A stretch of 10,637 nucleotides of DNA from a virus (taxonomy: Duplodnaviria; Heunggongvirae; Uroviricota; Caudoviricetes). Of the stretch, positions 1,419 through 10,637 are shown one piece after another; the stretch's first letter is position 1; every line of letters starts with the position of its first letter. Location: positions 1-10,637 of the IMG/VR virus record IMGVR_UViG_2529292908_000010, one strand, 5' to 3'. Made by a program: the position numbers and the translations under genes. The notes beneath the pieces were generated by a model that saw nothing but the letters and a program-made list of their open reading frames with translations, was not told the origin of the DNA and did no database searches.

Positions 1419-3890
1419 TTAAAAATCAGCCTGACTCGGGATCAGTTTTTGCCAGATAACTGAAACGTATTTTGCCTGGTAACGGGCGTCATCAAGTGCA
1501 TTATGGCGCTCACCTTCGAATGGAATAGCCGTTCTGGCATCGAAGTCTATGGCTTTCCCCAGCTCAACGATTGTGCGTACATCGCGATCGTTGTAGTAAC
1601 GCCACGGGCAGGGGATCCCCTGCCGTTCGTATGAACGGCGCAAAATCGTGTTTTCGAAGTTGGCTCCATTTCCCCAGACCTGAACAAAAAATTCACCGGA
1701 GTTTTCGTCGATAAATTCCCGCAATTGTAACAGTGCATCATCTAACGGGATTTCATCGGTCATAATGGCAGACTGCGCTTCACGTGATTGCTTCAGCCAC
1801 CTTTTAATGACGTCACGATCAATGACTCCGCCAGCAGTTTCCAGATCGATAGTCTTACTAAATTCCGGTCCCATATCTCCGGTTTGCGGATCGAAAAATA
1901 TTGCATCTATTGAGATAATCGGGGCATCAGGATTTTTGCCCATTGTTTCAAGGTCAATCATCAGATGGTGCCACAACCTGCTGGTGGATGTGCTTTTACG
2001 ATGACCGTTCACCTTAATTAAGGGATTTGCTGTCTCGCCTATTTCATTATTGTCATTGGCATGTTGATCGCCTTCGGTGCACTCCTTGTTCGGGAGTCCG
2101 GCACTTTCTATTTCCTCTGGATCTTTTTCCCGGGCTTCATCCTGGCTTTCTTCGTTGAATGTCTCCTGGTAGGTTGCGTCACCCATCACTGCGCCACAAT
2201 CAGGGCAGTTACCACCACCAGTCTGATTGCATGCGGTACAAACTTTTTCCTCTTCCTGTTGCACGACTGGTTCAGGTTGTTTCGTTTCTGGCTCGTTTTG
2301 TAACGCATTTTGGCTGTTTTGTTCCGCTTTTTGGTCGTACTGTTCCGTTTCTGACTGGTTCTGGTGCACAGAATCGCGGGTTTCAATCCCCTTCACCCAT
2401 TTCGGATCATTCGGGTCGCTAATCCCTTCAACAAATTCACCACGTGATGCAGCGAGCAACTTATTAGCGTCAGGCTGGCTGATACTGGCTGCCTGCATAA
2501 TTTTGTTTACTTCGTCAGCGGTAACTTTTACCAGGTCTGGTTGTGCGGTCGTGTCAGATGCATCAGTATTTTGTTGTGAACCTGTGTATGTGCCGTTTTT
2601 GCGGGCAAAATATTCTTCTTTCGTGATTTCAGTTGCCCCGGCAGCCAGCGCCTTATCCAGACCAGAAAGTTTGTTTGCGCGACCGTATTTTTCGCCATCC
2701 TTGTCGGTGAAGAGGAAGTAGAACGGCCCCTCACGCTCTACAGATGGTTCGACTTCCACTTTGCATTCGGTTTTTTCGTTGTCCGGCATTGCCGTTTCCA
2801 CTGCATCAGCTTCTGGTACTGGCGACGGGAGAGTATTAGTTGTGCTCTGATTTGTTCCTTCATCTTCAAACACGCCCTTTGTAGTCAGGTATTCAGTGAT
2901 GTATTTGTTCAGCGCCACGGGATCTTTGTGAATGTCGATCGGACGTTCACGGACAAGGCCAAAAATAGTCTGACGGTCATAGCCAAGTGCTTCAGGCTGT
3001 TTGCGCATTGATGCCGAGATACGCTTCCAGTCTTCGCGGTCGTTGTCGATAACTTCATTTTTTGCCCAGCGATGGATGCTGCCGTCAATGTTTCCGGCAT
3101 CCACATCACCAGGCCAGAGAGCGTAGGCCAGTTCGTCATCCAGTGTTTTCCATGTCTGCTTGTATTCGCGATGAATGGCAGCAATGACCGGGCTGATTTT
3201 TCCTGTTGAATTTTCAGTGTGCTGTTGATTGGTTCTGGCGCGGGCGAGATCAACAACAGACGTGTATTTTCCTGTTTCCTTGCGTTCACCTTCGCGACGT
3301 TTTTTCCAGATGCGCATCTCTGCCTGAATTTCGGGCCATTTGGCACTAGGCTTACATTTATGCTTAACCCACCCGATGGCATGCAGCTTAAGCTCCGGAT
3401 ACATGGCGTTAACTTCTGGCATTTTCATCAACGCTTCAACGATATGTCCGTCGAATGTTGCCATGTCTTCCTGCAACAATTCCTGTGCGCTAATAACCAT
3501 ATCAACGGTGATGTTTTCACATGTGTCGAACTTAACCATGACAGCGTTCTGTACTTCAGGGGCCAGCTTGTCAAAAGTGACGTTCATCGGATCGGATTCA
3601 GTCTCAACCGGGACAAAGGAAGCAGACTCCTCATCCCAGCGGTTTTCCTGCATATATTCAGCATCCCATGAATCGAGGGCAGGGCGGGGTATGCCAGGTT
3701 TATCCTCGCAGACAATAAATTTATAAGCGCAGTCCTGAGCAGCCGGATAATGTTCCAGGAATTGCCAGTGAAATTTTGCTCGAGCACGGCGTTCGTCGCC
3801 AGCTTCAATGGCTGTGGCTACAGCCACAGCGCCTTCTTCCCTTGTTGCCAGTTCGTCAGGAATAGCGGCGCAAATAAAGACTTTACTCAT
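1419..3890 (-). CDS. Large early-left exonuclease (exodeoxyribonuclease VIII-like) with C-terminal DEDDh/DnaQ-like 3'-5' exonuclease domain and internal Cys4 zinc ribbon
   Basis: 823-aa ORF, ATG at 3890-3888, TAA at 1421-1419. C-terminal motifs MIDLETMG (Exo I), VWGNGANFEN (Exo II-like) and ERHNALDDARYQ (Exo III, H-x4-D). Central C-x2-C-x7-C-x2-C (CTACNQTGGGNCPDC) inside an acidic Q/E/N-rich stretch. Occupies the recE position upstream of xis-int. Family call is from motifs and memory, not a search. Confidence 0.85.
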   Translation of the reverse strand: MSKVFICAAIPDELATREEGAVAVATAIEAGDERRARAKFHWQFLEHYPAAQDCAYKFIVCEDKPGIPRPALDSWDAEYMQENRWDEESASFVPVETESDPMNVTFDKLAPEVQNAVMVKFDTCENITVDMVISAQELLQEDMATFDGHIVEALMKMPEVNAMYPELKLHAIGWVKHKCKPSAKWPEIQAEMRIWKKRREGERKETGKYTSVVDLARARTNQQHTENSTGKISPVIAAIHREYKQTWKTLDDELAYALWPGDVDAGNIDGSIHRWAKNEVIDNDREDWKRISASMRKQPEALGYDRQTIFGLVRERPIDIHKDPVALNKYITEYLTTKGVFEDEGTNQSTTNTLPSPVPEADAVETAMPDNEKTECKVEVEPSVEREGPFYFLFTDKDGEKYGRANKLSGLDKALAAGATEITKEEYFARKNGTYTGSQQNTDASDTTAQPDLVKVTADEVNKIMQAASISQPDANKLLAASRGEFVEGISDPNDPKWVKGIETRDSVHQNQSETEQYDQKAEQNSQNALQNEPETKQPEPVVQQEEEKVCTACNQTGGGNCPDCGAVMGDATYQETFNEESQDEAREKDPEEIESAGLPNKECTEGDQHANDNNEIGETANPLIKVNGHRKSTSTSRLWHHLMIDLETMGKNPDAPIISIDAIFFDPQTGDMGPEFSKTIDLETAGGVIDRDVIKRWLKQSREAQSAIMTDEIPLDDALLQLREFIDENSGEFFVQVWGNGANFENTILRRSYERQGIPCPWRYYNDRDVRTIVELGKAIDFDARTAIPFEGERHNALDDARYQAKYVSVIWQKLIPSQADF

Positions 3891-3985
3891 TTTGTTTTAA
3901 CCTCATTACAGATTTCAGGGTGAACGAATCCCTGCCATTGCTGGCATTTTTAATCCGTTGGTATGGCGTTAATATGGCTGGCGGG

Positions 3986-4174
3986 TTATCCAGCCGGTAT
4001 TGCGTTATTCAGGTTCAGCGATACTTTTTTTAACGGGAGGCATTCACCGGGGATTTTTTGTTCGTCCCTTACCTGAATGCAGGATGACTTACTGTCATAA
4101 ATTCCGGTAATCACATTTTGTGGCTCACCCGTTATAAGAAAAACGGTCATCACCAGTGCAAATGCTGAAGTCAC
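3986..4174 (-). CDS. Hypothetical small protein (62 aa), hydrophobic N-terminus
   Basis: ORF with GTG start at 4174-4172 overlapping the upstream stop (GTGA), GGAG 7 nt upstream. N-terminus MTSAFALVMTVFLITG is hydrophobic. No recognisable family; AT-rich context. Confidence 0.4.
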   Translation of the reverse strand: MTSAFALVMTVFLITGEPQNVITGIYDSKSSCIQVRDEQKIPGECLPLKKVSLNLNNAIPAG

Positions 4175-4359
4175 TGCTGTTCTCCGATAATACCAAGTTC
4201 AAGAAGGGCAATTCTGGAAAGTATGGAATTATCATTGAGAAGATAAGGTTCATATTTTCTCATCTTAATGGCATCTTCCGTAAACTCCCGGTTACTGAGC
4301 AGAACACCAATATCAAAACAACCTTCAGACGTATTAACGTTTGGTAATAACGTTTCCAT
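4171..4359 (-). CDS. Hypothetical small protein (62 aa)
   Basis: ATG at 4359-4357 with GAGGA 7 nt upstream; stop overlaps the start of the next ORF. No recognisable family. Confidence 0.45.
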   Translation of the reverse strand: METLLPNVNTSEGCFDIGVLLSNREFTEDAIKMRKYEPYLLNDNSILSRIALLELGIIGEQQ

Positions 4360-4376
4360 TATCGCGTCCTCAACAA

Positions 4377-4537
4377 TGAATTTTGTGATGCGGTGCCTGG
4401 TGCCTCCAGGTGACGTTAACCAGTTAACAATTAACGCCGGAATACAGAAGGATGCCCGTTACGCCCCGTAAAAGACCACTTTACGGTTTTAACTGTTCCG
4501 CGTGCGCATAGCCGCATTCACCGCATCACAAAATTCA
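4377..4537. repeat. Perfect 19-bp inverted repeat pair flanking a 123-bp palindrome-rich segment
   Basis: TGAATTTTGTGATGCGGTG at 4377-4395 and its exact reverse complement CACCGCATCACAAAATTCA at 4519-4537. Interior holds further palindromes (CCTGG-tgcct-CCAGG at 4396-4410; GTTAAC-cag-TTAAC at 4415-4428). Confidence 0.7.
4466..4490 (+). terminator. Terminator-like hairpin followed by TTTT (plus strand)
   Basis: CCGTAAA (4466-4472) pairs with TTTACGG (4480-4486), 7-nt loop, then TTTT at 4487-4490. Stem is AU-rich and no confident plus-strand gene lies upstream. Confidence 0.25.
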
Positions 4538-4835
4538 CTTTAAAAAGGGTGGCAGAGCAGTCACGGAGTAGAACTGATGCCACCAAATACTACACATGGG
4601 TATTGTGGCGGGGCTGTCACTTAAGCGTATGGTCAACCTGACGACCCGGTGCATTTTCTGGAGCAATGGAGGAAGCCCCAGCCATACTTACCGCCGCGCC
4701 ATTTCGCGGACTGCCACAACCGGAAGTGCACGGTCGAAGAAATTTAACGACAAGCCTTATATGCAAAGGAATCTCGCCGTGCGCTTTCGTGTTGTGTGCC
4801 TGCTTTTAACCACGTCAGGCGAGGTGGTTTCCGTC

Positions 4836-4864
4836 ATTCCCCAATAACAGGAAATCTGTATAAT
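4836..4864 (+). promoter_or_regulatory. Putative sigma70 promoter for the rightward membrane-protein gene
   Basis: Perfect -10 TATAAT at 4859-4864 preceded directly by TG; -35 is poor (ATTCCC/TTCCCC). Lies 35 bp upstream of the SD-ATG at 4898. Confidence 0.3.
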
Positions 4865-4897
4865 CTGGATATCCCCAACAACAGGAAGGTGTTTTAT

Positions 4898-5056
4898 ATG
4901 GTGGTTCAAAAGAATTGTTCAGGTACTGGTAAGCCTGCGGACAGGGCGGACATTCCGAATACCAGGAAACATATACCTGAGAAAAACATTCGACCAAAAC
5001 CATCTCCAGCTCCTTCAGAGGAGAGGGGGAACAGCAACAATCAAACAAGCAGGTGA
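4898..5056 (+). CDS. Hypothetical small hydrophilic protein (52 aa)
   Basis: ATG at 4898 with AGGAAGG 8 nt upstream; stop 7 nt before the next ATG. Pro-rich, low-complexity product and not in the track under this start, so it may instead be a leader region. Confidence 0.3.
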   Translation: MVVQKNCSGTGKPADRADIPNTRKHIPEKNIRPKPSPAPSEERGNSNNQTSR

Positions 5057-5062
5057 TGATAT

Positions 5063-5509
5063 ATGGACCGGGATGATATTCTTGACAGGGTTTTATATGG
5101 TTATTTTCTTGAACAACTATTCTCTGTAGCGACTGGTCGTCTCGATAAACTTTTCTCAGTGGTGAGTATTATCCTCGGTTCATCTGTCATTGGTGGATTT
5201 ATTCCTGAAGTTTCTGGAGTTCTCATCGTTGTGATAGCAACCGTTCAAACGATTTACGGATTCGGACAAAAGTCAGGTAACGCAATGAGAAAATCCGCAG
5301 AATATCTGCAGCTTTATGATGATGCAGAAAAATATTCCGATTCGGAATTGAAAATGCAGTTAAAGCTCCTGGAAAAAACAGATGATAATATTTGGTCGTC
5401 GCTTAAAGATATCGCAATCTTAAAAACCCAGATCAAAATAGGAATCTCCGTAGAACAACAAGAGAAACTGTCTGCAAAATCCAAATTGATGCGATTCCTT
5501 TGTGGTTAG
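5063..5509 (+). CDS. Small membrane protein, putative superinfection-exclusion / abortive-infection protein (SieB-like by architecture and position)
   Basis: 148-aa ORF, ATG at 5063 with AGGTGA 6 nt upstream. Two predicted TM helices (LFSVVSIILGSSVIGGFI; VLIVVIATVQTIYGF) then a charged helical tail. Rightward gene set among leftward early genes, as sieB is in lambda/Rac. Confidence 0.7.
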   Translation: MDRDDILDRVLYGYFLEQLFSVATGRLDKLFSVVSIILGSSVIGGFIPEVSGVLIVVIATVQTIYGFGQKSGNAMRKSAEYLQLYDDAEKYSDSELKMQLKLLEKTDDNIWSSLKDIAILKTQIKIGISVEQQEKLSAKSKLMRFLCG

Positions 5510-5607
5510 GAATACCCAGATTGTTAAAGAGCATGCCGAATGCTTACCCGTGTCCGGCGAACGTATTCCACTTCGCCTGTGGAGAACTCTTTAATTACTA
5601 ACCTTCA

Positions 5608-5760
5608 TCAGTCAGAGTTTCTTGCTAACCAGCGATGCGCGCCAGCTTCAGTTTTAAACGTTTTGCTTCTGGTATACGTCATCGCGGTAAACGTGCCGTC
5701 CTGGTTAGGGAACACACCACATACCAGAGATTCGTTGTTGCCAAGATTGAGCATATCCAT
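5608..5760 (-). CDS. Small hypothetical prophage protein (50 aa), YdaF/YdfA-like by size and position
   Basis: ATG at 5760-5758 with GAGG 5 nt upstream, TGA at 5610-5608. Product MDMLNLGNNESLVCGVFPNQDGTFTAMTYTRSKTFKTEAGAHRWLARNSD is not compositionally biased. Below the 60-aa track cutoff; translated by hand. Confidence 0.45.
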   Translation of the reverse strand: MDMLNLGNNESLVCGVFPNQDGTFTAMTYTRSKTFKTEAGAHRWLARNSD

Positions 5761-5933
5761 GTTGACCTCATTTCCCCTTAACGCCGGGTCGCGGAACTAA
5801 AAACCTGCTGCGCTGTTATACAAAGTGTTCCCGCCGTCATGTTCATACGCCTCGGGCTGGCTACTTAACCCCTGACCACTGCCGGGTAACTCTAGGTATT
5901 GCCTGGCGTTCTGTGGGACGGGGTGGTGAAGTT

Positions 5934-5963
5934 AGTTTATACAAAAATAAACTAAACAGCCAA
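5934..5963 (-). promoter_or_regulatory. Putative leftward early promoter (pL-like) with overlapping 20-bp operator-like palindrome
   Basis: Minus strand: -35 TTGGCT (5963-5958), 16-nt spacer, -10 TATAAA (5941-5936). Palindrome AGTTTA-N8-TAAACT at 5953-5934 overlaps the -10. Lies just downstream of the parE terminator. Confidence 0.4.
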
Positions 5964-5984
5964 TATGTAACTTAACGCTTTGGC

Positions 5985-6010
5985 GTAAATAACCCCCTTT
6001 TGAGAGGGGG
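5985..6010 (-). terminator. Rho-independent terminator of the repressor/toxin-antitoxin operon
   Basis: Minus strand: GC-rich stem CCCCCT/AGGGGG (6010-5993) followed by UUAUUUA (5992-5986), 16 nt after the parE stop. Confidence 0.55.
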
Positions 6011-6025
6011 CTTTGCTTCGGGGGA

Positions 6026-6313
6026 TTAAGGTGTTACAGGGAACTGTCGGCGGGCGTGAACTACGTTAACAATTTCAATGCCTGAAATTGTCACGCGGTA
6101 CAGTATTATGTAATTGGGGTGGGCTACAATTTCACGTAAACCGGGTACTCTGTCGCTTGGCGGGTATAAATACGGATGCTCAGATAATGGCAGAACGCAA
6201 GTCCTTAAGCGTTTCCACAAACGTTCTGCCGCATCTATGTCAAAACGTGCAATATAGCTGGTTATCTCATCTAGGTCGGTATCTGCGCTTTCAAGCCATA
6301 ACACGGGTAACAT
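6026..6313 (-). CDS. parE: ParE/RelE-superfamily toxin (ParE2-like)
   Basis: 95-aa ORF with RelE/ParE hallmarks (REIVAHPNYIILYRV...IEIVNVVHARR). ATG at 6313-6311 abuts the stop of the upstream antitoxin gene (TAA-ATG). Confidence 0.9.
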   Translation of the reverse strand: MLPVLWLESADTDLDEITSYIARFDIDAAERLWKRLRTCVLPLSEHPYLYPPSDRVPGLREIVAHPNYIILYRVTISGIEIVNVVHARRQFPVTP

Positions 6314-6505
6314 TTACTGTTTGCTCCGTTCCTTGCGCATTTTTGCAAAGCGTTCTGCCATTCTGCGTTCAACTTCGTCATGAGGAATAGCTGGACGTGG
6401 ATCAGCTAGGCTCGCGGCCACTTTTGCACGCAACCATTGGTTATAACTATTTTCTTGCTCGACGGTTTCAAATTCAGAAACCATTGGTGAAAGGGCTGTG
6501 TTCAT
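6314..6505 (-). CDS. paaA2: PaaA2-like antitoxin
   Basis: 63-aa ORF directly upstream of and coupled to parE, GAGG 6 nt before the ATG. Sequence (MNTALSPMVSEFETVEQENSYNQWLRAKVAASLADPRPAIPHDEVERRMAERFAKMRKERSKQ) matches my recollection of E. coli O157 PaaA2; recollection unverified. Confidence 0.8.
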   Translation of the reverse strand: MNTALSPMVSEFETVEQENSYNQWLRAKVAASLADPRPAIPHDEVERRMAERFAKMRKERSKQ

Positions 6506-6542
6506 ATGGTGAACCTCATCTTGTAAGTGCTGGTAAATCGGC

Positions 6543-6716
6543 CTAGGTAACTTTCTGTTGTGCTTCTAGCCACCTTGCAACTATACGATCCATTGCCTCT
6601 TTTTTCTCCTTCATATCTTTTAGCATTTGCTGTTGATCTTCCTCTGGAAATGCGTCAAATGTTTGAAGTAGTTCTTTTTGCCTAGGGGTTATTTTTAATA
6701 TACCCTGTGCCCTGTC
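6543..6716 (-). other. -1-frame continuation encoding the C-terminal domain of the PaaR2-like regulator
   Basis: From the slippery site the -1 frame reads DRAQGILKITPRQKELLQTFDAFPEEDQQQMLKDMKEKKEAMDRIVARWLEAQQKVT*, homologous to the C-terminal domain of the 6925..7338 gene. This frame opens only 4 codons before the slip site and has no usable start. Confidence 0.5.
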
Positions 6717-6937
6717 TTTTTTTCTTCATTTAATGGTAAGAAAAACCAATACTGAGGAAATCCCGTTACTTCAGATAGTTTATCTAGATTAGCTGCTGTA
6801 GGGCTTGAGATACCACAAACCCACCTTTGGACGGATTGTTGAGCAATACCAATTCTGCGCGCAAGTTCTGCTTGACTCCAGCCTTTTGTCAATAGAAGCA
6901 TCTTAATTCTAAGAGCACTAATTTCTAGTACGCCCAT
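6695..6937 (-). CDS. XRE-family HTH regulator, N-terminal part of a PaaR2-like regulator
   Basis: 80-aa ORF with classic XRE motif (LTKGWSQAELARRIGIAQQSVQRWVCG), first gene upstream of the antitoxin. Ends 5 codons after an A_AAA_AAG heptamer, beyond which the conserved C-terminal domain continues in the -1 frame. Confidence 0.75.
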   Translation of the reverse strand: MGVLEISALRIKMLLLTKGWSQAELARRIGIAQQSVQRWVCGISSPTAANLDKLSEVTGFPQYWFFLPLNEEKKTGHRVY

Positions 6938-7338
6938 TTGATATCTCTTGTTTTAGTATGTCTCTCGTCAGGCTCGGCGACCTTGCTGCGCCAACCAACG
7001 TGCAACAAGATCTTCCATTGCCTCTTTTTGTTTCTTAGTTCTTTTATGATCTCCTGCTGCTCATTATCAGGAAATGCACTAAATATTTGTAGCAATTCCA
7101 ATTGGTTAGGGGTTAATGCTATAGGTCTTGATGGCGGAGCTCCTGTTATGTCTTCTGGCTCAATATCAAGATAACCCCCTGGCATCCCATATGTTTGTTC
7201 AATACGTCTAGCCGCCTTTTCGCCAAACGTAGCTTTACCGCTCATTAATTGAGATAAGTAACTTTTCTCTTTAGGTGGCAAAGTCCTGTCTTTGAACCAC
7301 TCTTTGAGGCGTAAACGCCGAATCTCTTTTGTTTCCAT
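6925..7338 (-). CDS. Repressor-position HTH regulator (cI/RacR positional analogue), paralogous to the PaaR2-like regulator
   Basis: 137-aa ORF from ATG 7338 (track starts at GTG 7344), divergent from the Cro-like gene. N-terminal phage-repressor-like HTH (SYLSQLMSGKATFGEKAARRIEQTYGMPGGYLD); C-terminal domain (TPNQLELLQIFSAFPDNEQQEIIKELRNKK) homologous to the 6543..6716 segment. No SD, consistent with leaderless translation. Confidence 0.8.
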   Translation of the reverse strand: METKEIRRLRLKEWFKDRTLPPKEKSYLSQLMSGKATFGEKAARRIEQTYGMPGGYLDIEPEDITGAPPSRPIALTPNQLELLQIFSAFPDNEQQEIIKELRNKKRQWKILLHVGWRSKVAEPDERHTKTRDIKWAY

Positions 7339-7344
7339 ATACAC

Positions 7345-7373
7345 ATTATCTTTAGTAATTGCAAAATAAGCAA
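7345..7373 (-). promoter_or_regulatory. Putative pRM-like promoter giving a leaderless repressor mRNA
   Basis: Minus strand: -35 TTGCTT (7373-7368), 17-nt spacer, -10 GATAAT (7350-7345), placing the start site at or next to the A of the ATG at 7338. Motif-based only. Confidence 0.35.
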
Positions 7374-7377
7374 ATGC

Positions 7378-7407
7378 TTGACTAGTTTGTTTAGTTGTGT
7401 ATAAACT
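7378..7407 (+). promoter_or_regulatory. Putative pR-like promoter with overlapping 20-bp operator-like palindrome
   Basis: -35 TTGACT (7378-7383), 16-nt spacer, -10 TATAAA (7400-7405). Palindrome TGTTTA-N8-TAAACT at 7388-7407 overlaps the -10, 16/20 identical to the one at 5934-5953. Confidence 0.5.
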
Positions 7408-7439
7408 TTATGTGTTCTAAATGTGCAGAGATAAAAGTT

Positions 7440-7721
7440 ATGACGTTAAAGGAATTCATCAAATCATTAAAAACTGGAGAAGCCAAAAAATTTGCGGCCA
7501 ACCTTGGTGTGTCTCCGTCCTTCTTATCCCAAATGGCATCTGGAAATTCACCTGTGTCTCCTGTTCGTGCGTTGATGATAGAAGCTGAAACAGGAGGACA
7601 TGTTACAAGACGAGAGTTGAGGCCTAATGACTGGGAGCTTATATGGCCTGAATACACTGGAAGCACGCCTCCTTCACGTCACAAATATGAACTTAACTCC
7701 AAAAAGCTGATGGGGGGGTGA
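7440..7721 (+). CDS. Cro-like HTH protein (YdaS-type)
   Basis: 93 aa from ATG 7440 (upstream in-frame ATGs fall inside the promoter). Cro/YdaS-like motif KKFAANLGVSPSFLSQMASGNSPVSPVRALMIEAETGGHVTRRELRPNDWELIWPEY. Divergent from the repressor gene. Confidence 0.8.
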   Translation: MTLKEFIKSLKTGEAKKFAANLGVSPSFLSQMASGNSPVSPVRALMIEAETGGHVTRRELRPNDWELIWPEYTGSTPPSRHKYELNSKKLMGG

Positions 7722-7724
7722 TTC

Positions 7725-8162
7725 ATGAAAATCAAGCATGAGCACATCCGTATGGCGATGAATGCGTGGCTGCTTTATCCGAGAGTGGGGCGCAAAAAAA
7801 TCGCTGATGATATAGCAACAGCATATTTTGAGCTTGAAATGACTTATCCACCAATGCATGACACCTCTACGACAGAGGGTATTGGATTGAACATACAAAA
7901 TATTTTTCGCTGGCTTGAAAAGGATACGCCTGATGCTGTTGAAAAAATTCAGGCACTAATTCCGGCGATCCTGACTGTTCTTCCGCGTGAACTGCGTTAT
8001 CACCTCAGTATTTTTGACACTGTTGAGCGCCGTGCATTACTGGCGGCGCAGGAAGCGTTGAGCACGGCAATTGATGCACATGATGATGCAGTCCAGGCCG
8101 TTTACCGGAAAGCGTATTTCAGCGACGGCGGGTCATCCGGCGAGTCTGTTGTGGTGCATTGA
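7725..8162 (+). CDS. YdaT-family protein (CII-position regulator)
   Basis: 145-aa ORF starting 3 nt after the Cro-like stop, G-rich SD upstream. Size, sequence character and position match Rac YdaT-type proteins. Confidence 0.85.
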   Translation: MKIKHEHIRMAMNAWLLYPRVGRKKIADDIATAYFELEMTYPPMHDTSTTEGIGLNIQNIFRWLEKDTPDAVEKIQALIPAILTVLPRELRYHLSIFDTVERRALLAAQEALSTAIDAHDDAVQAVYRKAYFSDGGSSGESVVVH

Positions 8163-8248
8163 TATTTATGCCAGACCCCTGCTGATTCTGTTGATTGGGG
8201 AATCACAGAATATCACCAGAGGATGGTTCGTCACAAGATGAGGCAATT

Positions 8249-9262
8249 ATGGCCGCATTACCATACATGCAACTGTACATAGCTGATTACCTGGCTGACA
8301 CCATGCATTTGTCTGCAGAGGAGCACGGCGCGTATTTGTTGCTGATGTTTAATTACTGGCAAACAGGGAAACCAATACCTAAAAACAGGCTGGCAAAAAT
8401 TGCCCGTCTGACTAACGAGCGATGGGCTGATGTTGAACCATCCTTGCGGGAGTTTTTTTGCGATAACGGCGATGAATGGGTGCATCTTCGGATTGAGGAA
8501 GATCTGGCATCAGTCAGGGAAAAATTAACCAAAAAATCAGCCGCCGGAAAAGCATCTGTTCAGGCCAGAAGAAGCAGAAAGGAAGCATATGTTCAAACAA
8601 AACAAGAGAGAGATTTAACAGGTGTTCAAACAAATGTTGGTGTTGTGTTTGAACATGACGCAAACACAAAAGCAACTAATAAAGATACAGATCTAAAAGA
8701 ATTAAACCCCACACATAACGTGCGTGAGCGCGAGAGTATTCCGACCAGTGAGTTGCATGGTGCGCCGTTGCAGACAGCCGAACCTGAATACCTGGACGGC
8801 CTGAGCGAACCGATCGGGAAATTTTCGATGACCACTGTCTGGCAGCCGTCGCCGGATTTTCGACAACGGGCAGCAGTGTGGGGTATGGCTCTGCCTGAGC
8901 CGGAATTTACACCTGCTGAACTTGCCGCCTTCAGGGACTACTGGGCAGCTGAGGGGAAAGTTTTTACGCAGGTTCAGTGGGAGCAGAAATTCGCCCGTCA
9001 CGTAAATCACGTCAGGGCGCAGGTTAAACCAGTCAGCAAGGGGGTGCGTCATGCAGCAGCACCAGGTGGCACCGCATCACGGGCAGTTCGGGAAATTCGG
9101 GCAGCACGTGAGCAGTGGGAACGTGAAAACGGATTTGTCAGCGACGGAAACGGCGTGGAAGCTGTGGGAGCTCATGGGGGAGGTTTATTCAAACCGCTGG
9201 ACTCAGAAGAACGGGGCCGCACCTTCGAAGCTCTGGATTGCCCAGATTGGCGCGATGACTGA
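8249..9262 (+). CDS. Replication initiation protein (lambda O positional analogue; YdaU/DUF1376-like N-terminal domain)
   Basis: ATG at 8249 with GAGG 5 nt upstream (track starts at TTG 8195). N-terminal domain YMQLYIADYLADTMHLSAEEHGAYLLLMFNYWQTG is YdaU/DUF1376-like. Iteron-like repeats sit in the interdomain linker. The last ~70 codons overlap the P-like ORF and are low-complexity, so the true 3' end is uncertain. Confidence 0.8.
   Translation: MAALPYMQLYIADYLADTMHLSAEEHGAYLLLMFNYWQTGKPIPKNRLAKIARLTNERWADVEPSLREFFCDNGDEWVHLRIEEDLASVREKLTKKSAAGKASVQARRSRKEAYVQTKQERDLTGVQTNVGVVFEHDANTKATNKDTDLKELNPTHNVRERESIPTSELHGAPLQTAEPEYLDGLSEPIGKFSMTTVWQPSPDFRQRAAVWGMALPEPEFTPAELAAFRDYWAAEGKVFTQVQWEQKFARHVNHVRAQVKPVSKGVRHAAAPGGTASRAVREIRAAREQWERENGFVSDGNGVEAVGAHGGGLFKPLDSEERGRTFEALDCPDWRDD
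8590..8655. repeat. Iteron-like repeats (candidate replication origin) inside the O-like gene
   Basis: TGTTCAAACAAA at 8590-8601 and 8623-8634 (direct), TGTTTGAACA at 8646-8655 (inverted copy of the 10-mer core), followed by an A-rich stretch at 8661-8700. Confidence 0.4.
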
Positions 9263-9716
9263 ACAGCAAATCAGGCTGGTCTGCCGTCAGTGCATGGACC
9301 GCTGCCGGGCGGGTGAAACGTGGCCCCCGGACCTGGCTGAGTTTGTTGCGCTGATTTCGGAGAGTGGGGCAAATCCATTTGGTCTTACGGTGGATGCCGT
9401 GATGGAAGAGTACCGGCGCTGGCGCAATGAATCCTGGCGGTACGACGGGAGTGATAAATACCCGTGGCCACAGCCTGTGCTGTACCACATTTGCCTCGAG
9501 ATGCGCACCAGAGGGATTGAACGTCAGATGACTGAAAGTGAGCTGAAACGACTTGCAGAACGACTGTTGACCAAATGGGCAAAGAATGTTGGTAACGGCA
9601 TGAGTGTTCCGCCAGTGCGACGACAACTGGAAGGGCCAAAACACCCGCCAGGGCCAACGCCAATTGAGTTACTGAAACAGGAATATGAGCGCCGGAAAGC
9701 GGCTGGTTTTGTCTGA
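9051..9716 (+). CDS. Lambda P-like replication protein (helicase loader)
   Basis: 221-aa ORF, ATG at 9051 with AGGGGG SD. Collinear with lambda P from memory (WPPDLAEFVAL vs PSPGQFVAWC; YPWPQPVLYH...ELKRLAERLL vs YPWKSNAHYW...ELRRKAADEL). Start uncertain; internal ATG at 9174 is possible. Confidence 0.8.
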   Translation: MQQHQVAPHHGQFGKFGQHVSSGNVKTDLSATETAWKLWELMGEVYSNRWTQKNGAAPSKLWIAQIGAMTEQQIRLVCRQCMDRCRAGETWPPDLAEFVALISESGANPFGLTVDAVMEEYRRWRNESWRYDGSDKYPWPQPVLYHICLEMRTRGIERQMTESELKRLAERLLTKWAKNVGNGMSVPPVRRQLEGPKHPPGPTPIELLKQEYERRKAAGFV

Positions 9717-9749
9717 ATTTGAGAAATGATTTTGTCGGAGGAAATTTTA

Positions 9750-10463
9750 ATGGAAACCGTTTTTGACGCACTGAAAGCACTGAAAAGAGCCTCTTCACAG
9801 GAGGTGTCGGCCCGCCTTGGAATCAGCCGCGAAGATGCTGTCAACGAGCTGTGGAAGCTGAAACGCCGTGGTGAAGCAGATAACAAGGGGTCGATGTGGT
9901 GGCTGACGATTGAGGCAACTGAAATGGTCACAAAAACCACTGCGGAGATGCTGATTAACTCAATTGAACAGCATGGTCCTCAGTCGGCTGACGAACTGGC
10001 GTTAATGTTCGGGATTACCTCCCGCCGGGCGAATTCAACGCTGGCAATGGCAATAAGCAAAGGTCGTCTGATTCGAGTAAATCAGAACGGTAAATTTCGT
10101 TACTGCCTGTCGGGCGATAATTTACCAGCAGAGCCGAAAGCTGCATCGGTAACGGAAACTGCTGGTAAAGCCTTTCCTCAGACAGCAGGTGTTGCGTTAC
10201 CAGTCCGGGAAGCGGAAACACAGGAAGAAATTAAAACTGAAAGTGTGGCGGTCACAGTGCAGTCACAGCCGTCGTTCACCAGAAAGCATCCGGATAGTCT
10301 GATTTTACCATCGCTGCATGTGGCTAACCGCGAACTGCGCCGGGCAAAAGGTCAGGTTCAGAAGTGGGAGCGAGTCTGTGCTGCGCTGCGTGAGCTGAAC
10401 AAGCACCAGGATATTGTTCGACAGATTGTCGATTCCTCCAGTCGTATTGTGTCGGAAAAGTGA
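9750..10463 (+). CDS. Hypothetical protein with two winged-helix-like segments
   Basis: 237 aa from ATG 9750 with GGAGG 8 nt upstream (track start 9726 has no SD). Two HTH-like segments ([28 protein letters not shown]; [32 protein letters not shown]). Sits directly after the P-like gene. Confidence 0.75.
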
Positions 10464-10478
10464 TTGCCGGAGGTACTT

Positions 10479-10637
10479 ATGGCAAGAGTATTTACACAGG
10501 AAGAGCGGGAAGAAGTGAAGGCGCGCATTGTGGAATTCGTGCGCCTGAGCGGACGAGAAACTTTTCGACAACTGGCAGATAAAACGGGTGTCAGTAAGAC
10601 CGCTATTCGTCGTTTACCCAATCAAAAGCAGGGGTGA
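10479..10637 (+). CDS. Small hypothetical protein (52 aa) with HTH-like segment
   Basis: ATG at 10479 with GGAGG 7 nt upstream; TGA at 10635-10637 is the last codon of the window. Product MARVFTQEEREEVKARIVEFVRLSGRETFRQLADKTGVSKTAIRRLPNQKQG. Below the track cutoff; translated by hand. Confidence 0.5.
   Translation: MARVFTQEEREEVKARIVEFVRLSGRETFRQLADKTGVSKTAIRRLPNQKQG

Follow-up and report, generated by a model that had tools for sequence, protein, structure and literature searches.

Toxin, antitoxin and repressor at the immunity locus

The question raised by positions 6026-7338 of the window (the whole 10,637-nt stretch of IMG/VR record IMGVR_UViG_2529292908_000010 analysed here) is which of two regulator genes located upstream of a toxin-antitoxin (TA) pair occupies the place of a prophage repressor, and whether the other one belongs with the TA pair in a separate module. 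The four minus-strand ORFs, the TAA-ATG junction and the terminator hairpin described in the first-pass annotation are all present at this locus. Very probably, an E. coli prophage of the lambdoid, Rac/CP-933P-like kind has its immunity ("lysogenic") operon here, with the gene order paaR2, a DicA-like repressor gene, paaA2, parE2.

The last gene of the operon (6026..6313, minus strand) is an intact parE2 orthologue encoding a 95-aa toxin, which matches the Pfam ParE_toxin model (PF05016) over its full length (E 4e-16) and the ParE2 of PDB 5cw7/5cze at 90.3% identity (84/93; E 3e-56). The exact ParE sequence is found on 73 contigs. The preceding gene (6314..6505, minus strand) is likewise intact and encodes a 63-aa PaaA2 antitoxin devoid of a DNA-binding domain, as judged by Pfam PaaA2 (PF21217; E 8e-21) and by 93.5% identity (58/62; E 6e-35) to PDB 3zbe. 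The paaA2 stop codon TAA (6314-6316) immediately adjoins the parE2 ATG (6311-6313), and a GAGG motif lies 9 nt upstream of the paaA2 ATG. The phage collection gave partial matches only, namely Escherichia phage Evi (85.5% over parE-paaA2). The names that these two ORFs had initially received are therefore upheld by the matches to the O157:H7 structures.

The names of the two regulators, on the contrary, have to be exchanged. The label PaaR2 had been given to the XRE gene preceding paaA2, but it is the gene in repressor position (6968..7338, minus strand; 123 aa in its intact form) that matches the N-terminal domain of PaaR2 in PDB 7nkv (E 1e-31; 52/58 identical, about 90%), as well as PHROG 5736, a family of transcriptional regulators, whereas the XRE ORF shows no match to PDB 7nkv. 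PDB 7nkv, 8c3k and 8c3l are deposited as "phage repressor protein CI" and begin with MQKKE, the N-terminal sequence determined for PaaR2 (PMC8630535). The ORF starts at an ATG at 7338, divergent from ydaS and ydaT, and is the first gene of the operon. Since the gene in repressor position is itself PaaR2, the locus is a four-gene variant of the operon instead of a repressor followed by a separate three-component module.

The parallel with lambda cI-rexA-rexB that had been drawn for the position of the TA pair, downstream of a CI-like repressor, is correct and already published: in prophage CP-933P, paaA2-parE2 replace rexA/rexB and PaaR2 replaces CI (Jurenas 2021, PMC8630535; Prolic-Kalinsek 2023, PMC9986795). 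A TA pair in the rex position with PaaR2 as CI analogue is thus an experimentally characterised system and not new biology. As in lambda, a leaderless repressor gene served by PRM/PRE precedes two accessory genes and a terminator, with OR and OL on either side of the operon. The two operons have no sequence homology, and in place of the RexAB exclusion genes there is a type II TA pair with a demonstrated addiction phenotype. PaaR2 also lacks the LexA-like autocleavage domain (PMC8630535).

The resemblance to the paaR2-paaA2-parE2 locus of CP-933P / Sp12 is much closer, the window copy coming from the same species and prophage family, with ParE2 90%, PaaA2 93.5% and the PaaR2 N-domain about 90% identical. 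[quoted passage not shown] The operon likewise lies between PL/OL and ydaS-ydaT-O-P, and in both loci the PRM layout is leaderless, the operators are of the GTTTAGT type, and a YdaT site lies where ydaS meets ydaT. The window differs from CP-933P in having four genes instead of three, with the DicA-like repressor gene inserted between paaR2 and paaA2, in the frameshifts that interrupt both repressor genes, and in half-sites that depart slightly from the published consensus.

Control region, operators and terminator

The 101-bp divergent control region between paaR2 and ydaS (7339..7439) resembles OR and holds two promoters. PRM consists of a -35 element TTGCTT (7373-7368) and a -10 element GATAAT (7350-7345) separated by a 17-nt spacer; the A of the paaR2 ATG lies 7 nt downstream of this -10 element, and the paaR2 mRNA is therefore predicted to be leaderless. 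PR consists of TTGACT (7378-7383) and TAAACT (7402-7407) with an 18-nt spacer. The region also contains two putative operator half-sites, CTTTAGTAA at 7350-7358 and GTTTAGTT at 7389-7396. In the published equivalent, the control region is 97 bp long, paaR2 is leaderless and the half-site consensus is GTTTAGTAA (PMC8630535), which GTTTAGTT matches at 8/9 positions. Besides its single occurrence in the OR region, GTTTAGTT is found in the window only as an inverted pair at 5931..5957, just beyond the operon terminator, where it forms a putative OL-like operator; these GTTTAGT-type half-sites, GTTTAGTT and CTTTAGTAA, are thereby confined to 7350-7396 and 5931-5957. A PL/OL region that is repressed by PaaR2 and YdaS and adjoins the RAE2 locus has been described (PMC8630535).

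On the plus strand, the control region is followed by ydaS (7440..7721; 93 aa; Pfam YdaS_toxin), the Cro equivalent, which is also called as a 93-aa gene in the E. coli contig L014, and by ydaT (7725..8162; 145 aa; Pfam YdaT_toxin), the CII equivalent. The role of ydaS has been described (PMC8630535), as has that of ydaT (PMC8630535; PMC9986795). At the ydaS/ydaT junction (7718..7735) lies a putative YdaT OM-like inverted repeat, GTGATTCATGAAAATCAA, which has one mismatch to TTGATTN6AATCAA and is the only match with at most one mismatch in the window. The position of this site, with a PRE-type promoter reading back into the operon, is as published (PMC9986795).

At the other end of the operon, a terminator scan located an intrinsic-terminator-like hairpin (5985..6012, minus strand) with an 8-bp stem, a 6-nt loop and the tract UUAUUU. 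The GC-rich stem (6012-5991) begins 14 nt past the parE2 stop codon, and the fold has a dG of -13.7 kcal/mol (z -1.93; 9/200 shuffles fold equally well). The hairpin is predicted to terminate transcription, with an efficiency that we can only infer because the U-tract is short and weak. On the minus strand between 6026 and 7344, no promoter- or terminator-like site was found, which leaves the hairpin after parE2 as the sole one and is indirect evidence that regulator, antitoxin and toxin would be co-transcribed. For the O157:H7 orthologue, co-transcription, toxicity, neutralisation and post-segregational killing have experimental evidence.

These elements suggest how the operon would work. Leftward transcription would start at the ATG of paaR2 from the PRM-like promoter, or alternatively from the YdaT-activated PRE-like promoter, and would carry all four genes to the terminator, beyond which lies the OL-like operator. 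By orthology with O157:H7, PaaR2 would repress PR (ydaS/ydaT and the replication genes) and PL and autoregulate PRM, and the labile PaaA2, a ClpAP/ClpXP substrate, would neutralise ParE2, a nucleoid-associated toxin whose target is probably a topoisomerase. Should the orthology extend to function, loss of the immunity region would kill the cell, and the prophage immunity region would therefore be stabilised.

Frameshifts in both repressor genes

The regulator ORFs as they read in the window (137/139 aa and 80 aa) are frameshifted forms of a 123-aa and a 131-aa gene; neither frameshift appears in the first-pass annotation. In paaR2, the loss of one nucleotide in an A5 tract (7025..7029, minus strand; A6 in intact alleles) breaks the frame at codon 105 of 123 and yields a 137-aa ORF (6925-7338) whose last 32 residues are out of frame. 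The restored 123-aa protein is identical to both P0083 and the L014 gene product. In the second regulator gene (6543..6937, minus strand), comparison with L014 and a census of the tract across loci point to the loss of one nucleotide in an A7 tract (6717..6723; A8 in the intact allele), which leaves an 80-aa ORF (6695-6937) and an out-of-frame C-terminal domain (6543-~6716). Once restored, this 131-aa protein is equal to the L014 gene product and differs by one residue from P0115 (131 aa, 67 contigs). Over 6788 bp, L014 and positions 3852-10637 of the window show 0 mismatches and 2 gaps, the gaps being the single A missing from each repressor gene (A6 to A5 and A8 to A7).

The number of contigs with a given intact allele ranges from 67 to at least 1000, against 3-5 for the exact frameshifted products, and for this reason the lesions are regarded as sporadic mutations or sequencing errors and not as conserved recoding. 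Recent slippage is their likelier origin, and misread homopolymers are the less likely one. If both were sequencing or assembly errors, the real locus would encode its two repressors in full, at 123 aa and 131 aa, like L014. This explanation is plausible, yet we lean towards real lesions. Single-A undercalls in A-runs, one of them the A8 run that is the longest homopolymer of the 6.8-kb region, next to zero substitutions relative to L014 across 6.8 kb, are what such errors would leave; inactivation of a CI-like repressor would be expected to do harm, and the exact PaaA2 sequence is on record for E. coli DEC6C, whose genome is an early draft. However, the identical two indels recur in at least two different runs assembled in Logan (SRR491164 and SRR094133), the A7 allele is also present in GCA_023188415.1 and SRR18965766 within a different flanking background, the A5 state is shared by the divergent L010, and none of the five 7-nt runs of the region is affected (0/5).

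A genuine frameshift that inactivates paaR2 should derepress PR and PL (dicB, ydaS/ydaT), an outcome expected to be harmful and hard to square with a viable strain. A sequencing artefact, some activity retained by the altered protein, or -1 slippage at a low level may account for this.

The second regulator and the four-gene form

The second regulator combines an XRE HTH_3 N-terminal domain, recognised in the 80-aa ORF (6695-6937; Pfam, E 3e-12), with a PaaR2/DicA-type C-terminal domain. The restored protein aligns along its entire length with the NCBIfam model of DicA, the repressor of the Qin prophage (NF007257; residues 19-129 to 18-131 of 135, E 2e-15), a match that appears only after the frame is restored and whose 56.6 bits fall below the curated cut-off of 101 bits. 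Only the C-terminal domain is shared with PaaR2, the HTH_3 N-domain being different. This C-terminal domain is also common to the repressors of the repressor-PaaA-ParE operons of two heteroimmune relatives, L003 and L004, in which the sole repressor is 69% identical to the second regulator. Unlike DicA and the L003/L004 repressors, the second regulator is encoded second in the operon, does not adjoin the operator/cro region and is truncated in the window.

The intact four-gene architecture is found in the E. coli loci L001, L012, L013 and L014. L002 represents the three-gene form, from which the second regulator is absent; its homology to the window stops at the paaR2 stop codon and picks up again just inside paaA2, on either side of the 395-bp DicA-like repressor gene that the window carries between them. 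In L003 and L004, a single XRE-type repressor occupies the repressor slot directly before paaA-parE, and the XRE-repressor/paaA junction resembles that of the window. The four-gene form has the look of a PaaR2-type immunity cassette set in front of the [XRE-type repressor-paaA-parE] module of a heteroimmune relative. No description of this form was found in the literature searched. Between intact alleles, dN/dS is ~0.2 for the second regulator and 0.14-0.22 across both regulators.

The earlier layout, in which the XRE gene (6695-6937) is the dedicated "PaaR" of a self-contained three-component TA system and the upstream gene a separate, unrelated prophage repressor, draws on several of these observations: the 69%-identical homologue is the only regulator right before paaA-parE in L003/L004, the second-regulator/paaA2 junction is similar there, and the XRE gene has a PaaR2-type C-domain and, where the four-gene locus is intact, evolves under purifying selection. 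Nevertheless, it is unlikely, given that the PaaR2 orthologue is the upstream gene, that the XRE-type protein of L003/L004 is itself the one in repressor position, accompanied by a ydaS and operators of its own, that neither an operator of that type nor an internal promoter was seen in the window, that L002 does without the XRE gene, and that this gene is truncated in the window while the TA genes are intact. We therefore retain the four-gene operon headed by PaaR2.

Candidate cognate operators for the second repressor were sought with ACTTTWAAAGT, taken from the L003/L004 control regions, and rejected: in the window, this sequence has chance-level matches only, none of them near the operon, in contrast to L003/L004 with their ACTTTWAAAGT-type operators. 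An equivalence of the XRE type to the published PaaR1 of CP-933M was also looked for; megablast with the L004 module returned no O157:H7 sequence among the top matches listed, and a text search of the literature returned passing mentions only.

The four-gene form would on a bolder reading be a dual-repressor immunity operon. A DicA-like repressor that lacks a cognate operator in its own prophage may confer immunity in trans to Rac-like phages that are heteroimmune, such as the L003/L004 type, or may tune TA and immunity expression by joining PaaR2 in mixed oligomers, held together by the C-domain that the two share. The A8 tract would then serve as a recurrent on/off hotspot. We offer this as a rather improbable idea.

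Addiction or phage exclusion

Many prophage TA modules act in defence. With a TA pair in the rexAB position, expressed from the lysogenic promoter, a rex-like main role in abortive infection or exclusion of superinfecting phages, in place of addiction, comes to mind. This role is speculative and, to our judgement, very doubtful. Neither ParE nor PaaA2 matches any PADLOC defence model at E up to 0.01. Furthermore, published work on the O157:H7 orthologue describes plasmid stabilisation and an addiction phenotype, detected no activation of ParE2 in one transcriptional state or the other, and points to addiction and stabilisation (PMC8630535). Addiction is accordingly the role that we favour for the pair.

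A slippery heptamer in the second regulator gene

In the window, the tract of the second regulator reads GAA GAA AAA AAG ACA, so that A_AAA_AAG, the heptamer classically used for -1 slippage in E. coli, stands in the zero frame, as in dnaX and IS elements, where a -1 shift on the identical heptamer likewise gives the complete protein. The corresponding tract of the paaR2 orthologue offers only C_AAA_AAG. Conserved programmed -1 frameshifting, the direction that both lesions would need, was considered for the two genes and rejected: L014 is intact, intact in-frame alleles are about two orders of magnitude (~100x) commoner than frameshifted ones, and no significant stimulatory structure was found downstream of A_AAA_AAG (fold z -1.36). 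In both respects, the requirement for a shift not being conserved in relatives and the stimulatory structure being absent, the second regulator is unlike dnaX and the IS elements.

Functional recoding or phase variation of this A-run, by -1 slippage or by tract-length switching between an 80-aa DNA-binding-only protein and the full-length repressor, is extremely unlikely, even though a -1 shift on the heptamer brings back the full C-domain, whose downstream frame is still open, and the same tract carries three different indels in three lineages (A8 to A7, A9C in L011 and A6T in L010): besides the commonness of intact alleles, the run is interrupted in L001-type alleles (AAAATAAGG), L010 is a clear pseudogene with further frameshifts, and a 1-nt deletion in any A-run before G gives the same picture one time in three. 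The heptamer most likely arose as a by-product when the A8 run lost a base.

Implications

For annotation, the gene in repressor position is to be named paaR2 and the XRE gene an additional DicA-like repressor. The resulting four-gene, two-repressor operon occurs widely in E. coli and is under purifying selection. If the lesions are confirmed at read level, the pattern of decay in the window, broken repressors next to intact TA genes, would fit the idea that, as prophages decay, addiction modules persist longer than regulatory genes.

Organization of the immunity region

The window corresponds to the left arm plus the immunity region of a lambdoid prophage of Rac/CP-933P-like type, with minus-strand integrase (1-1119) and DUF1391 (5608-5760) genes, an excisionase gene, a gene for an 823-aa exonuclease and DUF1482 and DicB genes. 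The plus strand carries ydaS (7440-7721), ydaT (7725-8162) and replication genes resembling O and P. Also on the plus strand, opposite to its neighbors, a 148-aa ORF (5063-5509) with a hydrophobic central stretch lies between DUF1391 and the dicB region; it has no match in Pfam, NCBIfam or PADLOC and a sole match to PHROG 6315, of unknown function. This ORF is present in the E. coli locus L014 (GCA_012373615.2) and absent at the equivalent place in three related loci (L001, L003 and L012), and it looks like a moron-type insertion. ydaT is mosaic: its first ~15 residues (MKIKHEHIRMAMNAW) are common to the window, L001 (4821-5246) and L012 (3165-3590), but past this point the 145-aa allele of the window and the 141-aa allele of the other two have unrelated sequences. 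The apparent ydaT dS of >2 stems from non-homologous replacement; the neighboring ydaS is nearly identical.

As the first-pass annotation described, four ORFs run from 7338 to 6026 on the minus strand, the antitoxin stop TAA is contiguous with the toxin ATG, and a terminator-like element follows (6012-5991; an 8-bp GC-rich hairpin, then UUAUUU; dG -13.7 kcal/mol, z -1.9). The hairpin region (5978-6030) also scored as terminator-like on the plus strand (5993-6010, then CTTTGCTT), and might therefore act bidirectionally between the immunity operon and the PL-side genes. The proposed toxin-antitoxin assignments hold: parE (6026-6313, minus strand; 95 aa; PF05016, E 4e-16) encodes a protein that shares 84 of 93 residues with ParE2 of E. 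coli O157:H7 as crystallised in PDB 5cw7, and paaA2 (6314-6505, minus strand; 63 aa; PF21217, E 8e-21) matches PDB 3zbe at 58 of 62. The exact PaaA2 protein is on record for E. coli DEC6C (EHV64850.1), an early draft genome.

The regulator labels, on the other hand, had been swapped. The gene in the repressor position (ATG at 7338, minus strand), once its frame is corrected, matches PDB 7nkv/8c3k/8c3l (E 1e-31; 52/58 identical in the folded domain), whose chain starts with MQKKE, the N-terminus established for PaaR2 (PMC8630535); this match and the MQKKE start identify it as the PaaR2 orthologue. Its promoter (TTGCTT, 17-nt spacer, GATAAT; the ATG begins 7 nt past the -10) reproduces the leaderless PRM layout published for paaR2. 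The XRE gene, previously labeled PaaR2-like, has no match to PDB 7nkv; its ORF (6695-6937) encodes an ordinary XRE HTH_3 domain. With its frame restored, it encodes 131 aa that align over their full length to the NCBIfam DicA model, with a score under the curated cut-off, and only the C-terminal domain (~45 aa) is shared with PaaR2.

Half-sites GTTTAGTT and CTTTAGTAA (published consensus GTTTAGTAA) occur in the window only in the 101-bp paaR2-ydaS region and as an inverted pair (5931-5957) just past the operon terminator, a layout mirroring the published CP-933P-type OR and OL/PL regions. At the ydaS/ydaT junction, the mapped place of a PRE-type promoter reading back into the operon (PMC9986795), GTGATTCATGAAAATCAA (7718-7735) differs by one mismatch from the YdaT operator TTGATTN6AATCAA. 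A sequence scan found no promoter- or terminator-like site inside the four-gene block on the minus strand, making its co-transcription plausible.

Frameshifts in both regulators

Alignment to E. coli L001 shows that each regulator requires a -1 shift in an A-run. Across 6788 bp (window 3852-10637), L014 has no mismatches and exactly two gaps: the paaR2 tract (7025-7029) is A5 in the window and A6 in L014, and the second-regulator tract (6717-6723) is A7 and A8, respectively. Both regulators are intact in L014 (123 and 131 aa), and the restored window proteins equal, or are one residue off, the intact database proteins P0083 and P0115. As read in the window, PaaR2 has its final 18 residues swapped for 32 out-of-frame residues, and of the second regulator only the 80-aa DNA-binding domain is left. 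Over the full window, no complete E. coli genome in RefSeq exceeds a match of ~94%; the 6.8-kb identity to GCA_012373615.2, together with the DEC6C PaaA2, means that the window almost certainly comes from an E. coli strain.

The most likely origin of both indels is sporadic slippage at a hotspot for mutation. The exact 80-aa product occurs on 4-5 contigs (GCA_023188415.1 and Logan assemblies of SRR491164, SRR094133 and SRR18965766) and the 137-aa frameshifted PaaR2 on three Logan contigs; A7 also accompanies intact paaR2 in another flanking background (L005, L008); and the same tract carries other indels in L011 (A9C) and L010 (A6T), the latter with additional frameshifts in both regulator genes. 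These recurrences argue that the indels are real. Since intact alleles are abundant (67 to at least 1000 contigs each) and under low dN/dS (~0.14-0.22), the indels appear sporadic rather than functional. Homopolymer sequencing error is the less probable but still serious explanation: A8 is the region's longest homopolymer, loss of CI-type repressor activity is expected to be harmful, and the exact PaaA2 is recorded in an early draft genome, yet none of the region's five 7-nt runs is affected, separate assemblies yield the same products, and A7 recurs in the L005/L008 background. Programmed frameshifting at the second regulator, suggested by an in-frame A_AAA_AAG, is very improbable, as relatives do not share the need for a shift and no significant stimulatory structure was found downstream.

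The 3' end of the second regulator also differs between L001 (3570-4031) and the window (6543-6548). In many E. coli strains the protein has 153 aa (alleles on at least 1000 contigs); these alleles lack the window's TAG stop and are 1 nt shorter ahead of the stop and 2 nt shorter ahead of the paaA2 ATG, so that they run 21 codons longer and overlap the paaA2 start. Thus, this end is indel-polymorphic even among intact alleles.

Origin and possible roles of the four-gene form

Compared with the published three-gene form (L002), homology of the window stops at the paaR2 stop and restarts just inside paaA2. In the heteroimmune Rac-like relatives L003 and L004, a 69%-identical XRE-type homologue is the only repressor; its gene adjoins its own ydaS and ACTTTWAAAGT-type operators, with paaA-parE directly after, and the repressor/paaA junction resembles the window's second regulator/paaA2 junction. 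No ACTTTWAAAGT-type operators occur in the window. Most simply, these alignments can be read as the product of a recombination that placed a PaaR2-type immunity cassette upstream of an XRE-repressor-paaA-parE module, which would have left the second repressor without local targets. This repressor is kept under purifying selection in many strains and, speculatively, may work in trans (heteroimmunity) or via mixed oligomers.

The locus is already known, being 90% identical to an orthologue within the species, and the published interpretation of the operon has experimental backing (PMC8630535); the four-gene, two-repressor architecture and the twin poly-A lesions of this copy are minor, functionally unconfirmed additions to the published accounts consulted. 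The rex-like exclusion role suggested for paaA2-parE finds no support, as neither toxin nor antitoxin has a PADLOC match and published single-cell work saw no ParE2 activation (PMC8630535). By orthology, PaaR2 would repress PR and PL and autoregulate PRM; the Cro-like YdaS and CII-like YdaT would act against it and turn the operon on, and the switch would be bistable. Likewise, PaaA2 would be a labile ClpAP/ClpXP substrate that neutralises ParE2, and the toxin would co-localise with the nucleoid and induce the SOS response, as published for O157:H7 (PMC8630535). The O157:H7 locus is addictive, and stabilisation of the immunity region has been proposed as its role (PMC8630535).
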